Positions 1-15,105 of a stretch of DNA of 64,000 bases are shown in pieces; position 1 is the first letter of the stretch, and each line of letters starts with the position of its first letter. The stretch is from Nitrospirota bacterium. GTDB taxonomy: Bacteria; Nitrospirota; Thermodesulfovibrionia; Thermodesulfovibrionales; Dissulfurispiraceae. The notes beneath the pieces were generated by a model. The model did no database searches and was not told the origin of the DNA. It saw only the letters and a program-made list of their open reading frames with translations. Location: assembly GCA_040754455.1 (NCBI GenBank), contig JBFMCP010000006.1:33649-97648 (forward strand), written 5' to 3'. A program made the translations under genes and the position numbers.

Positions 1-456
1 AACCTCCTCGATTGTCCCTTCAGGACCTGCGAGAGCGAGATAGAGAAGCTCTCGAAAATCACCAACGTTATCCTCATCGATCTTCACGCCGAGGCAACCT
101 CGGAAAAGATCGCCTTCGGCTATTACTTTGACGGCAAAGTCAGCGCGATCATCGGCACCCATACCCATGTGCAGACCGCCGATGAAAAGATCCTCCAGGG
201 CGGCACCGCCTATATTACCGACGCTGGAATGACCGGCCCTCAGATATCGGTGATCGGCATAGAAAAAGAGCAGATCATCGAGCGCTTCCTCACCCATATG
301 CCGAGGAGATACGACGTCGCCGGAGGCGCGGCAATCTTCTCCGGCGTTGTGATCGAGATAGACGACACAAGCGGCAAAGCGAAAGGAATACAGCGGTTGC
401 AGTTAACTACTTCATCGGGAGGTATGTATGGTTCAGGCAAAAGTGAAATGGGTTGA
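1..456 (+). CDS. ymdB: YmdB-like (TIGR00282 family) metallophosphoesterase, 5' partial
   Basis: Frame 1 is open from base 1: DCPF...DLHAEATSEK...GTHTHVQTADEKIL...TAYITDAGMTGP, hallmark YmdB motifs. Confidence 0.9.
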   Translation, partial: NLLDCPFRTCESEIEKLSKITNVILIDLHAEATSEKIAFGYYFDGKVSAIIGTHTHVQTADEKILQGGTAYITDAGMTGPQISVIGIEKEQIIERFLTHMPRRYDVAGGAAIFSGVVIEIDDTSGKAKGIQRLQLTTSSGGMYGSGKSEMG

Positions 457-8064: not shown

Positions 8065-9813
8065 TTACAGAGCGCTCTTCTGATGCTGCTTCTGTTTTAT
8101 GTTCCGTATCTTCCGCTCAATACGCTCTTTCAGTCCCTCTTCCTTAGCAGGAAATTTCAGTGCCTCATTCCACGATTCAAGGGCATCGTGATCACTCTTC
8201 AGTGCTTCATAGACATCGCCGATATGCTCATGCAGCACAGGATCGTCGTTCACTGACTTCAGGGCCTTTTTAAGTGTCGTCAGTGCTTCATCGAACCTGC
8301 CGAGCTTGAAATAGACCCAGCCGAGGCTATCGATAATGTACCCGCTGTCGGGTTTCAGGTCCAGCGCCCTGGTGATGAGATTGAGGGCCTCATCGAGGTG
8401 GATGCCCTTTTCCGCATAGCTGTAGCCGAGGTAATTCATGGCATCGGCATGCTTCGGATTCAGCTCAATCGTATACTTGAGTGCCGCTACCATATCATCA
8501 AAGCGCCCCATCTTCTCATAGAGAACAGCAAGGTTGAAGTTCAGCTCGTCGTTCTCCTTGAACCGTGCCAGCCCCTCCCTGAAGACAGCTTCAGCTTTGA
8601 TATAATTCTTCAGCTGCATATGGGCGGCGCCGAGATACGCATAGATTTCGGGCTTGTCCTTTTCAAAGCTCAGTATTTCCTCATAGATTCTCGCTGCATC
8701 ATCGTAGCGGTTCTTCTGTGCGTAGATAAATCCGAGGGAAAGAAAAGCGCTGATGTTCTTGGGGTCGAGCGTGAGGATCTTTTTCAACTCCTCGATGGCT
8801 GCATCGTGCCGGTCCAGCTCTTCGAGGGCGAGCACCTTGTAGTTCCTCACTGCAAGGTCTCTCGGCTTCGCAGCGAGGACAACCTCGAATTCCGCGAGCG
8901 CCCGCTCGTACTGTTTTTCCTGCAGATAGAGCAATCCGAGCCTGAGGTGGGCGTCGACATTGCCCGGCACCCGCTCCAGCGCCTCTTCAAGGGCCTTGAT
9001 CGCTTTCCTGAAATCCTTCTCAGAGAGGTACATCTGGAAGAGTTTCTCCCTGGTGAGCATATTGTTGGGATTCACCTCGAGGGCTTTCATATAGTATGCC
9101 TCAGCGGTAGGCAGGTCTCCTTTCAGCTCACGAATAAAACCTGCATTGACGTACGCGGCATCAAAGGACGGGCGGATGGTGATGATTTTCCTAAACATAT
9201 CTTCGGCGCTGTCATAAGACTTCGCTTCGAGATAGGCCGATCCTATATAATACAGGGCCATAATATTATCGGGATCCTTTTCCAGTACTTTCCCGAACAG
9301 GGCTTGCGCCTTTCTTGTTTCTCCCTTTCCTGCATAGAGCGAACCGAGGAACAGAAGCGCCTCATCCTTGTCCGGAGCCAGCCGTACCACACGTTCGTAT
9401 ATTTTTATCGCTGCGTCGCTCTTTTTCTCATTATGGTAAAGCTCGCCGAGAAGCATGAGTGCAGGGACGTAATCGGGATGCACTTTTATCAGCTCTTCTA
9501 GTCCGGTCAGCGCATCAGAGATCCGTCCCACTTTGATGAGCGCCATACTGATCTGGGTTTTCAGATGGACAGAATGCGGATCGAACGCAAGGGCGTTCTG
9601 GTAGTGCTGCAGCGCCTCTTCCCACTTCTCATCCTGTTCTGCCGCGTAGCCCTGAAGATACGCCAGAAACGCCTTTCCGGCATAGGGCGGCCACTCCTCC
9701 CGATGTCTTTTCTCCGGAGTTGCCGTACTGATCGTCTTCTGGGCAGTCGTTGCGCACGAGGCAGTAAACAGCGGGAATAGCAAGAGCAGGGGAACGAAAA
9801 GTCTTAATAGCAT
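8065..9813 (-). CDS. Tetratricopeptide repeat protein, probable lipoprotein
   Basis: Signal peptide with TASC lipobox-like site; many TPRs; NYLGYSYAE and IIDSLGWVYFK motifs typical of the TPR gene found next to ispE. Confidence 0.85.
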   Translation of the reverse strand: MLLRLFVPLLLLFPLFTASCATTAQKTISTATPEKRHREEWPPYAGKAFLAYLQGYAAEQDEKWEEALQHYQNALAFDPHSVHLKTQISMALIKVGRISDALTGLEELIKVHPDYVPALMLLGELYHNEKKSDAAIKIYERVVRLAPDKDEALLFLGSLYAGKGETRKAQALFGKVLEKDPDNIMALYYIGSAYLEAKSYDSAEDMFRKIITIRPSFDAAYVNAGFIRELKGDLPTAEAYYMKALEVNPNNMLTREKLFQMYLSEKDFRKAIKALEEALERVPGNVDAHLRLGLLYLQEKQYERALAEFEVVLAAKPRDLAVRNYKVLALEELDRHDAAIEELKKILTLDPKNISAFLSLGFIYAQKNRYDDAARIYEEILSFEKDKPEIYAYLGAAHMQLKNYIKAEAVFREGLARFKENDELNFNLAVLYEKMGRFDDMVAALKYTIELNPKHADAMNYLGYSYAEKGIHLDEALNLITRALDLKPDSGYIIDSLGWVYFKLGRFDEALTTLKKALKSVNDDPVLHEHIGDVYEALKSDHDALESWNEALKFPAKEEGLKERIERKIRNIKQKQHQKSAL

Positions 9814-9856
9814 AATTTTTTATTATCGCACAATGGATAGATAAAGTTAAAGGTGA

Positions 9857-9888
9857 TAAAAACAGTGGGGAGCCGACAGCTCCCCACT
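9857..9888 (-). terminator. Intrinsic terminator downstream of the small peptide gene
   Basis: AGTGGGGAGC-TGTCG-GCTCCCCACT 10-bp hairpin followed by GTTTTTA on the minus strand. Confidence 0.75.
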
Positions 9889-9914
9889 CATGAAGTCTTT
9901 GTAATGAAGCAACG

Positions 9915-9977
9915 TTAGCACGAACCCTTACATTTGCAGGTCATCGCTGCCTTTTTGGCTACCTTCTTGATCGTCAT
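9915..9977 (-). CDS. 20-aa Cys-rich peptide MTIKKVAKKAAMTCKCKGSC, putative radical SAM-modified RiPP precursor
   Basis: Hand translation; AAGGAGGT Shine-Dalgarno just upstream of the ATG; directly downstream of the rSAM/SPASM gene; followed by a terminator; too short for the ORF track. Confidence 0.75.
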   Translation of the reverse strand: MTIKKVAKKAAMTCKCKGSC

Positions 9978-10031
9978 CGGCGCACCTCCTTTTCCAAGGG
10001 GTCATGCCGGACTTCATGCCCGGTTATTTCA

Positions 10032-11192
10032 TTATATCATAATATCATATGCATAGCAGCGGTAGAGGTCCCGCTTCAGTGATATTTCATTGCCTTCCGT
10101 TCCCGTCCCCGCCCTGAACCGGCAGCCCCCGCGACAAAGGTGCATTACCTCACAATCCAGTGCGGCGCATTCAAGATCGTCAATCCGTACTGGTTTCATT
10201 CTGGTCCAACTCGTCCTCAGCCCTTCCCGTATCGTGCCTATCGGTGCAGTGGCATAAAAGGCGCATTTGCTTATGCGTCCGTCGGCGAGCACTGACATCA
10301 AATGATGTCCGCAGGCATATCCGTCTCCTCCTCCATGCAGGCCGCTGCCGAACCCATACCGCAGGTACCTTCCGGCCCTTTCCGGACTCACCTGCAGAAG
10401 GGGGTTACATAGCAAATTACCCGCAGCGCAGGGCACATCGACAGTCCACTCCCTGATGCCCATCTCCTTGAAGAGCACTTCCATTGCATCGAATTCACCG
10501 AGGTTCTCCCGATGCACCATGGTGGCAATGGATACCGCTATTCCCGTATTCAGCACCCTCTTGACCCGCTCCATCACCCGTTTGTAGGTCCCCCTCCCTC
10601 TGAGCGCATCATGACCGCGCTCCAGGCCGTCAACGCTGAATTGCACTTCTTGCACGTTCAATGTTTCCAGTATTTCATCATGCAGCATGAGACCATTGGT
10701 GAAGAGTATCTTCCTGAACCGGTATCGGGGCAGCAGCTCATTGAGCGCTGCAAAGCGGCGGTGCATCAGCGGCTCGCCGCCGGTGATCAGGAGGCGGAGG
10801 CCCTGCATCTCCTCGAACTCATCGAGAATTGTCGCGATGCTTTCGATTGACAACTCGTTGTCGCGTGCCGCCCCGAGGTAACAATGTCTGCAGGAGAGGT
10901 TGCAGCGGTCGGTAATCTGCAATTCGAGATACCGCAAAGAGGGAACCGGTGCTGCTCCAAACGGAGGCCGTTCCGCTGAAACAGCCTCCGTTGTCAGAAT
11001 GCCTTCTGAAAGGCAAGAGCCGATAAAGTCTTTTTCAACTCCCGCGCCGCTGCATCCATCGTGAGCTGCACAGCACTGGAGGAACGAAAAGGCCTCTTCG
11101 TCAAGTTCATAAAGCTCATCATTGACCATATCATACACGGCAAAGGTTTCGAGCCGCTTCAGAACAAACCTGTCGGAGAGATAATAGCGCAT
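10032..11192 (-). CDS. Radical SAM/SPASM domain protein with RRE(PqqD)-like N-terminal extension
   Basis: CNLSCRHC (CxxxCxxC), TGGEP, C-x10-G-x4-C ... C-x4-C-x5-C-x3-C ... C; ~85-aa N-terminal extension. Confidence 0.88.
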   Translation of the reverse strand: MRYYLSDRFVLKRLETFAVYDMVNDELYELDEEAFSFLQCCAAHDGCSGAGVEKDFIGSCLSEGILTTEAVSAERPPFGAAPVPSLRYLELQITDRCNLSCRHCYLGAARDNELSIESIATILDEFEEMQGLRLLITGGEPLMHRRFAALNELLPRYRFRKILFTNGLMLHDEILETLNVQEVQFSVDGLERGHDALRGRGTYKRVMERVKRVLNTGIAVSIATMVHRENLGEFDAMEVLFKEMGIREWTVDVPCAAGNLLCNPLLQVSPERAGRYLRYGFGSGLHGGGDGYACGHHLMSVLADGRISKCAFYATAPIGTIREGLRTSWTRMKPVRIDDLECAALDCEVMHLCRGGCRFRAGTGTEGNEISLKRDLYRCYAYDIMI

Positions 11193-11231
11193 ACCTTATT
11201 TTACAACAGCCATGTCTTGTTATAATTAACA

Positions 11232-11666
11232 ATGCACTATTTAGAACATCCGCTACCATCACTGCCGCGACTGCGAGGCCATCATCTCATCTGTCTTCAT
11301 TTCTATCGCGGTGAGGGGTACAACGAGGCATTTATCGCCAATCTAGAGAGTGTTTTAGAGAGAGCAGAAGAGTATGGTGTCGAGGTCTGTCGCGGGACAG
11401 ACGACGTCTGCTGTGCCTGTCCCTCTCGCGATCTCAACCGCTGCGCCCATACCGAGCATGCCGAAGAAGAGATACAGGCAATGGATGATCGCGCACTGCA
11501 TCTATTAGGGGTGCGGCATGGGCAAACAGTGCAGTGGGGGGCGGTCAGAAAAAGACTCTCCGGCCTCTTCTCCGAATGGTATGCGGCATGCTGTGATGGA
11601 TGCAATTGGAAAAGGGCGTGCGAGAAAAACGACCTTTACCGGGATCTTTCTGCTAAAACAGCATAA
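11232..11666 (+). CDS. DUF1284 family Cys-rich protein
   Basis: LRGHHLICLHFYRGEGY, DDVCCACP, CCDGCNW motifs. Confidence 0.8.
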   Translation: MHYLEHPLPSLPRLRGHHLICLHFYRGEGYNEAFIANLESVLERAEEYGVEVCRGTDDVCCACPSRDLNRCAHTEHAEEEIQAMDDRALHLLGVRHGQTVQWGAVRKRLSGLFSEWYAACCDGCNWKRACEKNDLYRDLSAKTA

Positions 11667-13746
11667 GATTTTGGTACAGGGGCCACTCATCGATGGTCAG
11701 CACCTCCACACGATTCTTGCCCCTTCCCTTTGCCTGATAGAGCGCATCGTCTGCCCTCTTTATAAAACTGTCTGCGATGTCATTTTCATTGAGCTCGGTC
11801 ACTCCTATGCTTACGGTGACCTCTCCGACGGCACTGAAGAACTGGCTCTCGATCTCTTTTCTTATCTTCTCCGCCAGCCACACCGCTCCCTCAAGCTCTG
11901 TTTCCGGAGCAAGCAGGATGAATTCCTCACCGCCGAATCGTGCAAAGACATCGGTACTCCGTATGTTCCTGCTTACAATATTGGTGGCCGTCACCAGCAC
12001 CGCGTCCCCCATGGCGTGTCCGAAGGTATCATTCACCTTTTTGAAATCATCGATATCGAAGAGGATGAGTGAAAGGGGAATTTTATACCGTGCGGACCGC
12101 TGCAGCTCTCTCTCGAGAACCTCGTAGAACTTCCTCCGGTTGTAGATGTTGGTGAGGGTATCCCGCTCTGCAAGGTCCCTCAACTTCTCCTCCATCATTT
12201 TACGTTCCGTAACATCACGGAAGATAGCGCGCGTGGCAAAAGGTTTGCCGTTTACAAAATTGCAATTAACGCTCCCCTCCACCGTCATTGTCCTTCCCTC
12301 TTTCGTCACAAACACCACTTCAACCTTATCGATAACCTCTCCCGCCATCACGCGTTGGAACATTTCGCCACAGTGGGCATGACAGTCGGGATGAATGATA
12401 TTAAAGATGGTGAGTTTCGAAACTTCCTCCTCGGTATAGCCCAGAGCTTTCCGCCACGCATTGTTTACATACTGGAACGTCCCGTCGGGGGCGACGCTCT
12501 GGATGAGGTCGTTGGCGTTCTCGAAAAGGTCGCGGTATCGTTCTTCGCTCTCCCTCAATGCCTCTTCAGCCCATGTCCTGACAATGATCTCCTGCCGCAG
12601 GTCCGCATTCACCCGTTCGAGCTCCGCCGTCCGCTCCATGACCCGCTCTTCGAGCTCGTGCCGTGCCTGTTCCAATGCCGCCCGGGAGATGCTCAGCCGC
12701 CGGTTCAGCTTCATCACATAGGTCGTCGTTATCGCCATGAGTGTTACCGCTGCAGCCGCCAGAGCAAACCAGTACCAGTATGCCCTGAGAAGTTCGGCGG
12801 CCGTAATCTTCCCGGAATCCTTATAAATACCGACCTTGAGCTCTTTCAGACATTCGTGTACCGGCTGATAATCAAGGGGGATGGTCCAGCCTGCACTGCC
12901 GGCCGCCCGTGCCGCACGGCTATTACGGGGCATGTTCAAAAGCGCAATCGTCACCTTTCTCGCATTCTCCTCTGAGGTGTGCCGCACTCTCGCAATCGGC
13001 CATTCCGGATAAAGAGATGTACTGTGCAGGAAGAGAAATTCCTCATTGTACTGACGGTTGAGGATACGGAAATCGTCAAGGTCGATTTTTCCTTCCTGGA
13101 CCATCCGTTCGAGGATGCAGGTGCGAACCGTCCCGGCATCGACCTTACCGTCCCTTACCGCAAAAACAACGGCATCATGCGTGCCGCCGAATTCGAGCTT
13201 CTTGAAATCTTTGTAGGGGTCGATTCCTTTTCGCTTCAGCTCGCGCAGGGCCATCCACCACCCCCCGAGGGAATTCTCCTCGACCGCCATAAAGGAGGCA
13301 TTCGCCAGATCAGTCAGCTCCCTGATATCCTCTCGATCGGCACGGGTGAAAATGACGCCGCCGTATTGCGTGTAGCTGCTCCCGTATGCATAGTTCCTCA
13401 ACGTGGCTATTCTGTTGACGCCATACAGCTTCTCCATCTCAACATAATCGGCGGGGTTGGTGATGATGAAATCGACCCCTCCCTGTTTCACGACGTGTCT
13501 GATTTCATTGAAAGTGAGAGGGACAATGGTAAACGAATGCTCCGGTATCTGCCGGGAGAGATAGGCAGCAGTGGGATCCCACATCGTGCGTGCGGCTGCA
13601 GTGCCCCTGTAGGCGAGCACACCGATCCTGATTTCCTGCTTCGGCTGAGACAATACATCGCCGCAGAGCATAAGAGAGACGAGGAGGACCGCTCCTATGA
13701 ATGTGCATGCGTGCGTTCTCTCGCAGAATTTCGTTACACAGCTCAT
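11653..13746 (-). CDS. Diguanylate cyclase: periplasmic PhnD/TtrS-like binding domain, TM helix, PAS, GGDEF
   Basis: IGVLAYRG...WDPTAAYL periplasmic domain; TM helix; PAS (EERYRDLFENAND); DTLTNIYNRR, DIDDFKKVNDTFGH, RFGGEEF. Confidence 0.9.
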   Translation of the reverse strand: MSCVTKFCERTHACTFIGAVLLVSLMLCGDVLSQPKQEIRIGVLAYRGTAAARTMWDPTAAYLSRQIPEHSFTIVPLTFNEIRHVVKQGGVDFIITNPADYVEMEKLYGVNRIATLRNYAYGSSYTQYGGVIFTRADREDIRELTDLANASFMAVEENSLGGWWMALRELKRKGIDPYKDFKKLEFGGTHDAVVFAVRDGKVDAGTVRTCILERMVQEGKIDLDDFRILNRQYNEEFLFLHSTSLYPEWPIARVRHTSEENARKVTIALLNMPRNSRAARAAGSAGWTIPLDYQPVHECLKELKVGIYKDSGKITAAELLRAYWYWFALAAAAVTLMAITTTYVMKLNRRLSISRAALEQARHELEERVMERTAELERVNADLRQEIIVRTWAEEALRESEERYRDLFENANDLIQSVAPDGTFQYVNNAWRKALGYTEEEVSKLTIFNIIHPDCHAHCGEMFQRVMAGEVIDKVEVVFVTKEGRTMTVEGSVNCNFVNGKPFATRAIFRDVTERKMMEEKLRDLAERDTLTNIYNRRKFYEVLERELQRSARYKIPLSLILFDIDDFKKVNDTFGHAMGDAVLVTATNIVSRNIRSTDVFARFGGEEFILLAPETELEGAVWLAEKIRKEIESQFFSAVGEVTVSIGVTELNENDIADSFIKRADDALYQAKGRGKNRVEVLTIDEWPLYQNLMLF

Positions 13747-13953: not shown

Positions 13954-15105
13954 TTATTCGGGAGTCCTTTCCCTTCGTGCCTTGAAATAGTCCAGAAAGG
14001 CTTTTACCACCGCCGGATCGAACTGTCTCCCGGAATGCTTCTGCAGTTCTGCAAGTGCATTCTCCCAGCTCAGCCCTTTCCGGTACGGCCTGTTGGTCGT
14101 CATTGCATCAAAGGCATCGGCCACGGCAACGATGCGCGCCAGAAGGGGAATCGCCTCCCCCTTCAAACCCTCGGGATACCCGGAGCCGTCGTACCGCTCA
14201 TGATGATATTTTATGCCGGGAATGACTCCCCTGAGCTTCTTGATCCGGGAGAGGACAGCGGCACCGAATTCAGGATGTTTCCGCATCTCGCCGAACTCCT
14301 CGGAAGTAAGTCTGCCCGGGTTCAGCAATATGGTATCCCTGACGCCTATCTTCCCGATATCGTGCAGTATTGCGGCAAGCCGCAGCCTGACCATCTCTCT
14401 TCTGGTCAAGCCTATTCGCCTGCCAATGGCCAGACTATACTCCATAACCCGCCGCGTATGCCCGCCGGTATAGGGATCTCTCATTTCTATGGTCTCGGCC
14501 AGGGCCTGCATGGTGTTATAGAATGTCTCGTTCAGCTCGTCACGGAGCCGCGTATTTTCCACAGCAATGGCGACCTGATTTGAGAATGAGACCATCAGCA
14601 CCATATCCTCAGAAGTAAACATCCCGCTCTTCTTGTTGATTACCTGGAGCACCCCGAGAAGCTTATTGCGGGCGGTTACCGGAACGCAGACCATATTTCT
14701 GGTTTTAAATCCGCTCCGTTCATCGACCTTTTTGAAAAATCGGGGGTCGTTTTCGGCATCTTCTACAATCAAGGGAAGCTGGTTCTCTGCAACCCATCCA
14801 GCGATGCCCTGCCCTTTCTTCAGCCGGACCGTCTTGACCACGTCGCCCCGCTTACCGCTCGCCACATCGAAATAGAGATCACCGGTGCTTCCGTCGACAA
14901 AGAGCAGGCTGCCGGCTTCGGCATCAGTCATGCGCATAGCGGATTCAATAGCACGCCGCTTGATTTCATCGATATCGAGGGCTGAATTGATAAGCGTCGT
15001 AAGCTCCACAAAGGCATCAAGGTGATTTGCCTTATGGGGATATGTATATGCGCTATATCCCTTAGCGCCCACGCCTGCCGCCTCCTCTGCGGTCAACAGG
15101 CGCAT
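13954..15105 (-). CDS. GAF + HD-GYP cyclic dinucleotide phosphodiesterase
   Basis: GAF (GQGIAGWV), RDPYTGGH, LHDIGK, HHERYDGSGYP, DAFDAMTTNRPY. Confidence 0.92.
   Translation of the reverse strand: MRLLTAEEAAGVGAKGYSAYTYPHKANHLDAFVELTTLINSALDIDEIKRRAIESAMRMTDAEAGSLLFVDGSTGDLYFDVASGKRGDVVKTVRLKKGQGIAGWVAENQLPLIVEDAENDPRFFKKVDERSGFKTRNMVCVPVTARNKLLGVLQVINKKSGMFTSEDMVLMVSFSNQVAIAVENTRLRDELNETFYNTMQALAETIEMRDPYTGGHTRRVMEYSLAIGRRIGLTRREMVRLRLAAILHDIGKIGVRDTILLNPGRLTSEEFGEMRKHPEFGAAVLSRIKKLRGVIPGIKYHHERYDGSGYPEGLKGEAIPLLARIVAVADAFDAMTTNRPYRKGLSWENALAELQKHSGRQFDPAVVKAFLDYFKARRERTPE

Follow-up and report, generated by a model that had tools for sequence, protein, structure and literature searches.

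A 20-residue cysteine-containing peptide co-conserved with a radical SAM/SPASM enzyme and a seven-cysteine protein in two bacterial phyla: a proposed peptide-modification system

Introduction

Does a 20-codon open reading frame (ORF) lying just behind the gene of a radical S-adenosylmethionine (SAM) enzyme encode a real peptide, and if it does, what is the relation of the peptide to the enzyme? The question is raised by a locus at positions 9,857 to 11,192 of a stretch of 64,000 nucleotides, called the window in the following, from a Nitrospirota bacterium (assembly GCA_040754455.1, contig JBFMCP010000006.1, positions 33,649 to 97,648 of the forward strand). A preliminary description of this DNA had noticed an enzyme with a SPASM-like tail and, beside it, an unannotated ORF with a CxCxxxC ending, and had taken the two for a minimal RiPP-like locus, a RiPP being a peptide that is made by the ribosome and modified after translation. 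Here we show that the 20-codon ORF is a genuine coding gene, overlooked by annotation, which is co-conserved with the radical SAM/SPASM enzyme, and that the enzyme, the peptide and a third component, a protein with seven invariant cysteines, are co-conserved across two phyla.

The 20-codon gene

The two genes and their signals are arranged as follows.

10032..11192, minus strand: gene of the radical SAM/SPASM enzyme (P0001), 386 residues, from the ORF and its translation.
9984..9991, minus strand: Shine-Dalgarno site AAGGAGGT, 6 nt 5' of the peptide ATG, read directly from the sequence.
9915..9977, minus strand: gene of the 20-residue peptide MTIKKVAKKAAMTCKCKGSC (P0002), stop codon counted in, from the translation.
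9856..9888, minus strand: intrinsic terminator with an 11-bp stem, a 3-nt loop and a T-run, ending the two-gene operon, from folding.

The enzyme gene has its stop codon at 10032-10034 and the peptide gene begins with the ATG at 9977, which leaves a spacer of 54 nt, in agreement with the preliminary description, which had also correctly read the CxCxxxC peptide and the near-perfect ribosome-binding site ahead of it. The terminator which it had placed after the peptide gene is present as well, its stem being counted here as 11 bp rather than 10: the hairpin proper occupies 9864..9888 (-), has 11 pairs including 7 G-C and is followed by GTTTTTAT, with a fold energy of -22.4 kcal/mol (z = -2.9 versus shuffles). 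Because the terminator follows the peptide gene and the next gene, that of a TPR protein (8065..9813, -), has its own promoter-like site, the enzyme and peptide genes make up a two-gene unit.

The conservation of the peptide was read from a set of orthologous enzyme loci, 38 of them from genomes of the same phylum, Nitrospirota, and 30 from a second phylum (Desulfobacteraceae relatives), which was reached via a Desulfobacteraceae metagenome-assembled genome (MAG) found by a contig scan with the enzyme as query. That scan, made with the single protein, returned only two loci, one of which (L022) is unrelated, with 23% identity, and was set aside. It was suggested in the preliminary description that the short ORF, if real, should recur beside homologs of the enzyme, and a 20-residue ORF ending C-K-C-x-x-S-C indeed adjoins the enzyme in 65 of the 68 orthologous loci. 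All 38 Nitrospirota loci have it just 3' of the enzyme gene, ending T-C-K-C-K-[G/S/N]-S-C-stop; in the second phylum it accompanies the enzyme in 27 of 30 loci, downstream of the enzyme gene in 9 and upstream in 18. Note that L020, which is counted among the 65, has no ATG at the usual place.

Without exception, the 49 distinct peptides have 20 residues, of which the last is cysteine, and M1, I3, C14, K15, C16, S19 and C20 are invariant among them. Positions 4, 5 and 8 are lysine or arginine in nearly all of them and position 6 is valine or isoleucine in 48 of the 49, the lysine-rich N-terminal half being conserved as strongly as the cysteine half. At the level of the genes, the mean pairwise difference is 0.257, 0.277 and 0.547 at the first, second and third codon positions, respectively; TAA, TAG and TGA are all used as stop codons, and almost every one of the 49 distinct genes has a GGAGG-type site ahead of its ATG. 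The codon-position pattern fits a coding gene, with purifying selection acting on the whole peptide. The gene is single-copy, with the back-translated motif pattern occurring once in the 3.27-Mb genome and the reversed control giving 0 matches. Four variants of the peptide were not found by exact-sequence look-up among 15 billion predicted proteins; gene callers miss it.

Having only 20 codons and being absent from the 15 billion proteins by exact look-up, the short ORF could be argued to have arisen by chance as a reading frame, or else to be non-coding, for instance a leader or an attenuator. If this were true, it would be hard to understand why seven amino-acid positions are invariant while the third codon position varies at 0.547, why three stop codons are in use with a Shine-Dalgarno site ahead of the ATG throughout, and why the ORF is found on either side of the enzyme gene; moreover, no Rfam family is present, the scan of 9600..11800 giving nothing relevant, with a sole match at E = 0.38. 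On the invariant positions and the codon-position statistics we rejected this explanation, to which we give practically no weight.

The preliminary description had divided the peptide into a lysine-rich, leader-like half and a C-terminal core. The cysteine-rich C-terminal motif stands, whereas the division into "leader plus core" may not apply because the lysine-rich half is as conserved as the cysteine half and no peptide departs from the length of 20. As a separate observation, locus L061 (848..1073, +) has two tandem peptide genes that differ at one residue (C-K-C-K-S-S-C and C-K-C-H-S-S-C), upstream of the genes of the seven-cysteine protein and the enzyme.

The radical SAM/SPASM enzyme

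Three regions of the enzyme are considered, with its conservation read from an alignment of 41 family members.

10881..10904, minus strand: CxxxCxxC motif (C97, C101, C104) of the SAM-cleaving 4Fe-4S cluster, all three cysteines invariant in the 41 members.
10056..10313, minus strand: SPASM-type region with C294, C310, C342, C347, C353, C357 and C379, from the same alignment.
10983..11192, minus strand: N-terminal domain, about residues 1-70, a candidate for an element like the RiPP recognition element (RRE), from the AlphaFold model.

The motif C97-x3-C101-x2-C104 and the tail of seven cysteines had both been pointed out before, and both are found to be features of the family: the SPASM cysteines are invariant in six cases out of seven, the exception being C379 with a conservation of at least 90%. 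The pattern C294...G305-x4-C310, C342-x4-C347-x5-C353-x3-C357, C379 fits the SPASM consensus, which is C-x(9-15)-G-x4-C, a gap, C-x2-C-x5-C-x3-C, a gap and C. The C-x4-C spacing in place of the usual C-x2-C, as also pointed out before, is real and, among the sequences shown, occurs only in those of Nitrospirota, the more distant members having C-x2-C or C-x1-C.

The Pfam family Radical_SAM (PF04055) matches the enzyme at 3.6e-19 with 70 bits versus the cut-off of 29.5, and Radical_SAM and Fer4_12 are the only Pfam families found on it. The Pfam SPASM model (PF13186) gives no match to the enzyme itself and matches 8 of the 41 family members at E <= 1, with 1.3e-05 as the best value. In sequence, the solved structures nearest to the enzyme are those of SkfB (1.9e-29), PqqE (1.9e-24) and CteB (1.1e-21). 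The AlphaFold model of the enzyme, with a predicted local distance difference test score (pLDDT) of 93.7 and a predicted template-modelling score of 0.92, matches the folds of solved radical SAM enzymes at Z 20-27. The best match is SuiB (Z 27.0, root-mean-square deviation 3.9, 360 residues, model residues 2..385, 18% identity), and the further ones are SkfB (Z 26.4, 7..372), anSME (Z 24.5, 81..386) and CteB (Z 23.8, 83..383), where the alignments to SuiB, anSME and CteB extend to residues 383-386 and span the SPASM region. The enzyme belongs to the radical SAM/SPASM class. SkfB and CteB, among the nearest peptide or protein modifiers, make thioethers. With seven conserved cysteines for two auxiliary clusters, there should therefore be one open iron site; CteB reportedly has one open iron site likewise, which is bound by a cysteine of the substrate.

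The first 85 residues had been taken in the preliminary description for an RRE/PqqD domain. Such a domain folds as a winged helix-turn-helix, made of three strands and as many helices, and is recognisable by PqqD-type profiles. Within residues 3-63 of the model there are three to four strands, among them 9-13, 17-21 and 26-29, followed by two helices, 32-41 and 54-63 (beta-beta-beta-helix-helix), and in the 41-member alignment the motif D25-E-L-Y-E-L-D is conserved, including D25, L27 and Y28. Among the structural alignments, only those to SuiB (from residue 2) and SkfB cover this domain. In the model, the domain looks like a reduced winged helix; this suggestive fold and the reach of the SuiB alignment give the earlier assignment partial support, and the sequence comparisons, none of them significant, are given below.

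The seven-cysteine protein

The locus is not minimal as had been claimed, since a third component, which in the source genome is encoded on another contig, belongs to the system. This is a protein of about 100 residues (about 110 in the second phylum) with seven invariant cysteines and the motifs C-x3-C-x-[FY][FY]-K-P...E...C-x-G, C-x2-C-x-F-x3-[G/D]-C-D-F and P-C-G-G. In the second phylum it is encoded in the 450-500 nt between the upstream peptide gene and the enzyme gene; it adjoins the enzyme in 19 of the 30 loci and reads in one frame with it in 4 of the 30 (L054, L057, L066, L069). In addition, five library proteins (P0126, P0128, P0129, P0132, P0138) have an N-terminal extension of about 125 residues with no Pfam match. 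In Nitrospirota the gene of the protein is divergent and just upstream of the enzyme gene in 11 of the 38 loci, and in the source genome it is unlinked, as an intact 99-residue ORF (G000:C18:38975-39280); an in-frame TGA considered in this gene was rejected, being the stop codon of the intact ORF. Of 301 sampled Nitrospirota genomes, 168 have neither the enzyme nor the protein; among the 133 genomes with either, 118 have both, 11 just the enzyme and 4 just the protein. The genomes being related and not independent, these counts overstate the support for a joint system and are to be read as co-distribution, not as statistical proof.

The protein matches no Pfam family and falls only into unnamed clusters in the protein atlas; its model is all-helical (pLDDT 78.8), and a fold search of the model against the PDB gave no match above Z 2.5. 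Its gene directly follows cutA, of a divalent-ion tolerance family, both in the source genome and in 13 out of 18 further loci in which it is unlinked, and an M29 aminopeptidase gene is beside the cutA and seven-cysteine genes in the source genome and in 6 of the 18. The protein is probably a metal or Fe-S protein, and together with its cutA neighbour it hints weakly at metal or redox handling. It is also noted that on the contig G000:C18 (L074, 1513..3269, -) the M29 peptidase, cutA and seven-cysteine genes form a tight same-strand run, where the cutA stop overlaps the start of the seven-cysteine gene, and a gene encoding a CxxCxxCC domain is adjacent on the opposite strand.

The seven cysteines could make this protein the true substrate of the enzyme, as in CrpC/CrpA and QhpD/QhpC, the peptide then having an accessory part, for example as a ligand of a metal or cluster, as an adaptor or as a regulator. 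This would agree with the co-occurrence (118 genomes with both and 15 with just one) and with the position of the gene between those of the peptide and the enzyme, or its fusion to the latter, in many second-phylum loci, and radical SAM/SPASM enzymes that cross-link small cysteine-rich proteins do exist, according to PMC13692751. By contrast, it is the peptide that is more tightly linked to the enzyme, in 65 of 68 loci versus 30 of 68 for the protein, which in the source genome is on another contig; an enzyme fused to its own substrate would be unusual, and the selection on the whole peptide is strong. We consider it unlikely that the protein is the substrate.

With the same partner and its cutA neighbour in mind, one may also think of the peptide as an unmodified, miniature metallothionein-like thiolate ligand for Cu, Zn or Fe-S, with the enzyme acting elsewhere. 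The motif C-K-C-K-x-S-C seems to resemble the Cys-Lys motifs of metallothioneins, and the partner gene follows cutA as described above, with the function of CutA itself being unclear. In this case the adjacency of the peptide to one enzyme family, in two gene orders and in two phyla, would be hard to explain without a direct relation between enzyme and peptide, which makes this explanation very doubtful.

Distribution and gene neighbourhood

Of 301 Nitrospirota genomes sampled, 129 carry the enzyme, including 21 of 23 from the source organism's own family, and so do 35 of 301 genomes of the second phylum. In a library clustered at 50% identity, 88 representatives belong to its family at E <= 1e-30, and there are 2637 clusters at E <= 1e-40 among 8000 candidates scored. 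By source name, the carriers include Thermodesulfovibrionales, Dissulfurispira, Thermodesulfobacteriota, Syntrophaceae and one Aenigmarchaeota MAG, with Dissulfurispira thermophila and Thermodesulfovibrio as cultured genera among them; sources that name the enzyme go no further than "radical SAM protein" or an unspecific label of the radical SAM/SPASM kind.

The flanks of the enzyme-peptide pair vary by lineage and include genes for a TPR protein, rubrerythrin, superoxide dismutase, nitroreductase, YchF and pyruvate:ferredoxin oxidoreductase. Consistent with the preliminary description, in which no dedicated protease or exporter was seen next to the pair, none is conserved there: among the 36 of 75 listed flank ORFs that were scanned, there are one ABC-2 permease and zero peptidases. 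Because export and processing genes are lacking, the peptide length is fixed and the presence is lineage-wide, an intracellular role is suggested.

This evidence also bears on the supposition that a small cofactor is excised from the peptide, as pyrroloquinoline quinone (PQQ) is from PqqA and mycofactocin from MftA, with the invariant C-terminal residues cross-linked or decarboxylated by the enzyme and the product released by general peptidases. The fixed length of 20 with cysteine last in all 49 distinct sequences, the housekeeping-like spread in Nitrospirota and in the source family, the lack of a conserved exporter nearby, the presence of PqqE and MftC among the nearer named relatives and the M29 aminopeptidase beside the cutA and seven-cysteine genes would all be in keeping with it. 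By contrast, the NCBIfam models of PqqE (TIGR02109, 53.6 bits versus 381) and MftC (TIGR03962, 75.6 versus 265) do not come near their cut-offs, the pair is not accompanied by a peptidase that is conserved across lineages, and the N-terminal half is as conserved as the C-terminal half, which fits a product retaining the N-terminal half. This supposition seems to us improbable.

Some further observations on the neighbourhood are as follows. The system has pyruvate:ferredoxin oxidoreductase genes on one side and rubrerythrin on the other in one Nitrospirota family, and in others there is nitroreductase or superoxide dismutase; this redox or oxidative-stress neighbourhood recurs (L018, L032, L034, L037; L033, L034, L035, L036) and could be meaningful or not. 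Another radical SAM gene, unlike that of the enzyme, is directly downstream of the enzyme gene in the related second-phylum loci L021 (4121..5053, +), L062 and L067; as a component of the system it was rejected, recurring only in L042 (the same place as L021), L062 and L067. In the window, the TPR-repeat protein encoded directly downstream of the terminator has 582 residues and a lipoprotein-like N-terminus, and TPR genes are in the equivalent position in at least L002 and L008. On the other side, a cysteine-rich DUF1284 gene (11232..11666, +; Pfam 2.5e-20) diverges from the enzyme gene with a gap of 39 nt, and its 3' end overlaps the end of a convergent GGDEF gene; as a partner it was rejected, adjoining the enzyme in only 2 of the 38 Nitrospirota loci (L001, L010). 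Two genes related to cyclic di-GMP stand side by side, the first (11653..13746, -) encoding a diguanylate cyclase in which a periplasmic phosphonate-binding-like domain is combined with PAS and GGDEF, and the second (13954..15105, -) a phosphodiesterase with GAF and HD_5 (HD-GYP-type) domains.

The proposed system

We propose that the enzyme, the peptide and the seven-cysteine protein constitute a three-component, probably intracellular, peptide-modification system of the sactipeptide/ranthipeptide kind, a reading that we hold to be rather probable. In its favour is the adjacency of peptide and enzyme in either gene order (38 of 38 loci in Nitrospirota and 27 of 30 in the second phylum). We infer that the peptide is the substrate, that the chemistry is of the thioether type, and where the product is located and what role it has, as follows. 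The 20-residue peptide would be translated from its own strong ribosome site, and its conserved basic N-terminal half (M-x-I-K/R-K-V/I) would bind the N-terminal domain of the enzyme and may remain in the product. The 5'-deoxyadenosyl radical would act on the invariant C-terminal C-K-C-x-x-S-C, where, most likely, one or more cysteine sulfurs would be joined to carbons of the same peptide in thioethers of the sactionine or ranthionine type, with auxiliary cluster I, having three cysteines, holding the substrate thiolate. The product, neither cut nor exported by a dedicated protease or pump, would likely stay in the cell and may work with the seven-cysteine protein in a redox- or metal-related role.

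Several points weigh against this proposal, besides the cysteines of the partner and the relatedness of the genomes mentioned above. No peptide is seen within the available sequence of 3 of the 68 enzyme loci (L051, L052 and L067, the last being a sequence without the upstream flank). The residues three positions before each cysteine vary among the peptides, and therefore no acceptor residue can be named. As to the docking domain, the Pfam PqqD model (PF05402) matches 0 of the 41 family members at E <= 1 and nothing in the source genome; a profile built on residues 1-88 of the enzymes of 31 loci found no RRE-bearing structure in the PDB, the sole match being a phage portal protein at E 0.38; and an hhalign comparison of the N-domain profile with 14 PqqD domains from relatives gave a probability of 2%, E 0.024, over 27 columns, at which probability the register is nevertheless plausible, with ELYELD over IYxLN and the next helix over the PqqD helix.

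A bolder form of the proposal is that the enzyme-cross-linked 20-mer is leaderless and intracellular and serves, with the seven-cysteine protein, as a prosthetic group, a redox cofactor or a metal (Cu/Fe-S) factor, being neither an antibiotic nor a leader-plus-core RiPP. We put it forward tentatively, as possible and yet rather doubtful. The peptide of fixed length with an invariant motif, the dedicated enzyme, the seven-cysteine partner and the lack of export genes look more like primary metabolism than like an antibiotic. If the bolder form is true, it would be expected that a new peptide-derived cofactor system exists, housekeeping-like in a large share of Nitrospirota and in part of a second phylum. 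With two or three small genes and with cultured genera among the carriers, the system lends itself to heterologous reconstitution, by which a new cofactor or a new chemistry of peptides could come to light.

Comparison with known systems

As far as can be judged from sequence comparison, the enzyme-peptide pair matches no described peptide-modification family. The enzyme matches 74 NCBIfam families, the 25 best of which all stay under their cut-offs, the top model being that of the ACGX radical SAM enzyme (TIGR04340), with 91.1 bits versus 400; no Pfam family is matched by the peptide, and no NCBIfam family either with the threshold relaxed to E <= 10, the SCIFF models included, so that the earlier statement that it cannot be assigned to a named class still applies. 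A search of the literature by motif and by topic, with most subscription journals and supplements outside its coverage, found no publication on this enzyme-peptide family.

The SCIFF peptides or ranthipeptides of Clostridia (CteA-CteB, Tte1186a-Tte1186) resemble the present system in having a radical SAM/SPASM maturase with an adjacent short cysteine-rich peptide, in being wide within a lineage and often without a dedicated exporter, and in having a role that is unknown in both cases, and CteB is a significant relative of the enzyme in sequence and fold. SCIFF peptides have about 45 residues and six cysteines. By contrast, the peptide here has always 20 residues and three cysteines, with cysteine at the end, the structural alignment to CteB covers residues 83-383 only and not the N-terminal domain, and the seven-cysteine partner is not known to be part of SCIFF loci.

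With the sactipeptide synthases (SkfB/SkfA, AlbA) the enzyme shares a substrate that would also be a cysteine-containing peptide, and SkfB is its best PDB match by sequence. Sactipeptide precursors have a leader that is cleaved, and the product is exported as an antibiotic. This differs from the present case, where no protease or exporter is conserved and the SkfB model of NCBIfam scores 60 bits versus the cut-off of 300. Of the features by which sacti- and ranthipeptide clusters are recognised, a cysteine-containing precursor beside a radical SAM/SPASM maturase is found in 65 of the 68 loci, and the genes for leader removal and export, which are usual and not universal in such clusters, are not conserved in the scanned flanks.

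SuiB/SuiA of streptide gives the best full-length structural match, spanning the N-terminal domain and the SPASM region. SuiB makes a carbon-carbon bond between lysine and tryptophan, whereas the peptide here is without tryptophan and the identity is 18%. In Methanococcus voltae, CrpC, a SPASM radical SAM enzyme with a predicted RRE, makes ranthionine cross-links on the cysteine-rich CrpA encoded in the same cluster, as described in PMC13692751. The likeness is a SPASM radical SAM enzyme with a cysteine-rich substrate encoded in the same cluster, and the difference is that CrpA is a cysteine-rich protein and not a 20-mer.

Finally, PqqA/PqqE and MftA/MftC differ from the pair in that their family models score far below the cut-offs on the enzyme, that a PqqD-type domain is not found by Pfam, and that the other genes of those pathways are not conserved beside the pair. 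What they have in common with it, on the proposed reading, is a very short precursor with critical C-terminal residues, a radical SAM/SPASM enzyme, an intracellular product and a lineage-wide spread.

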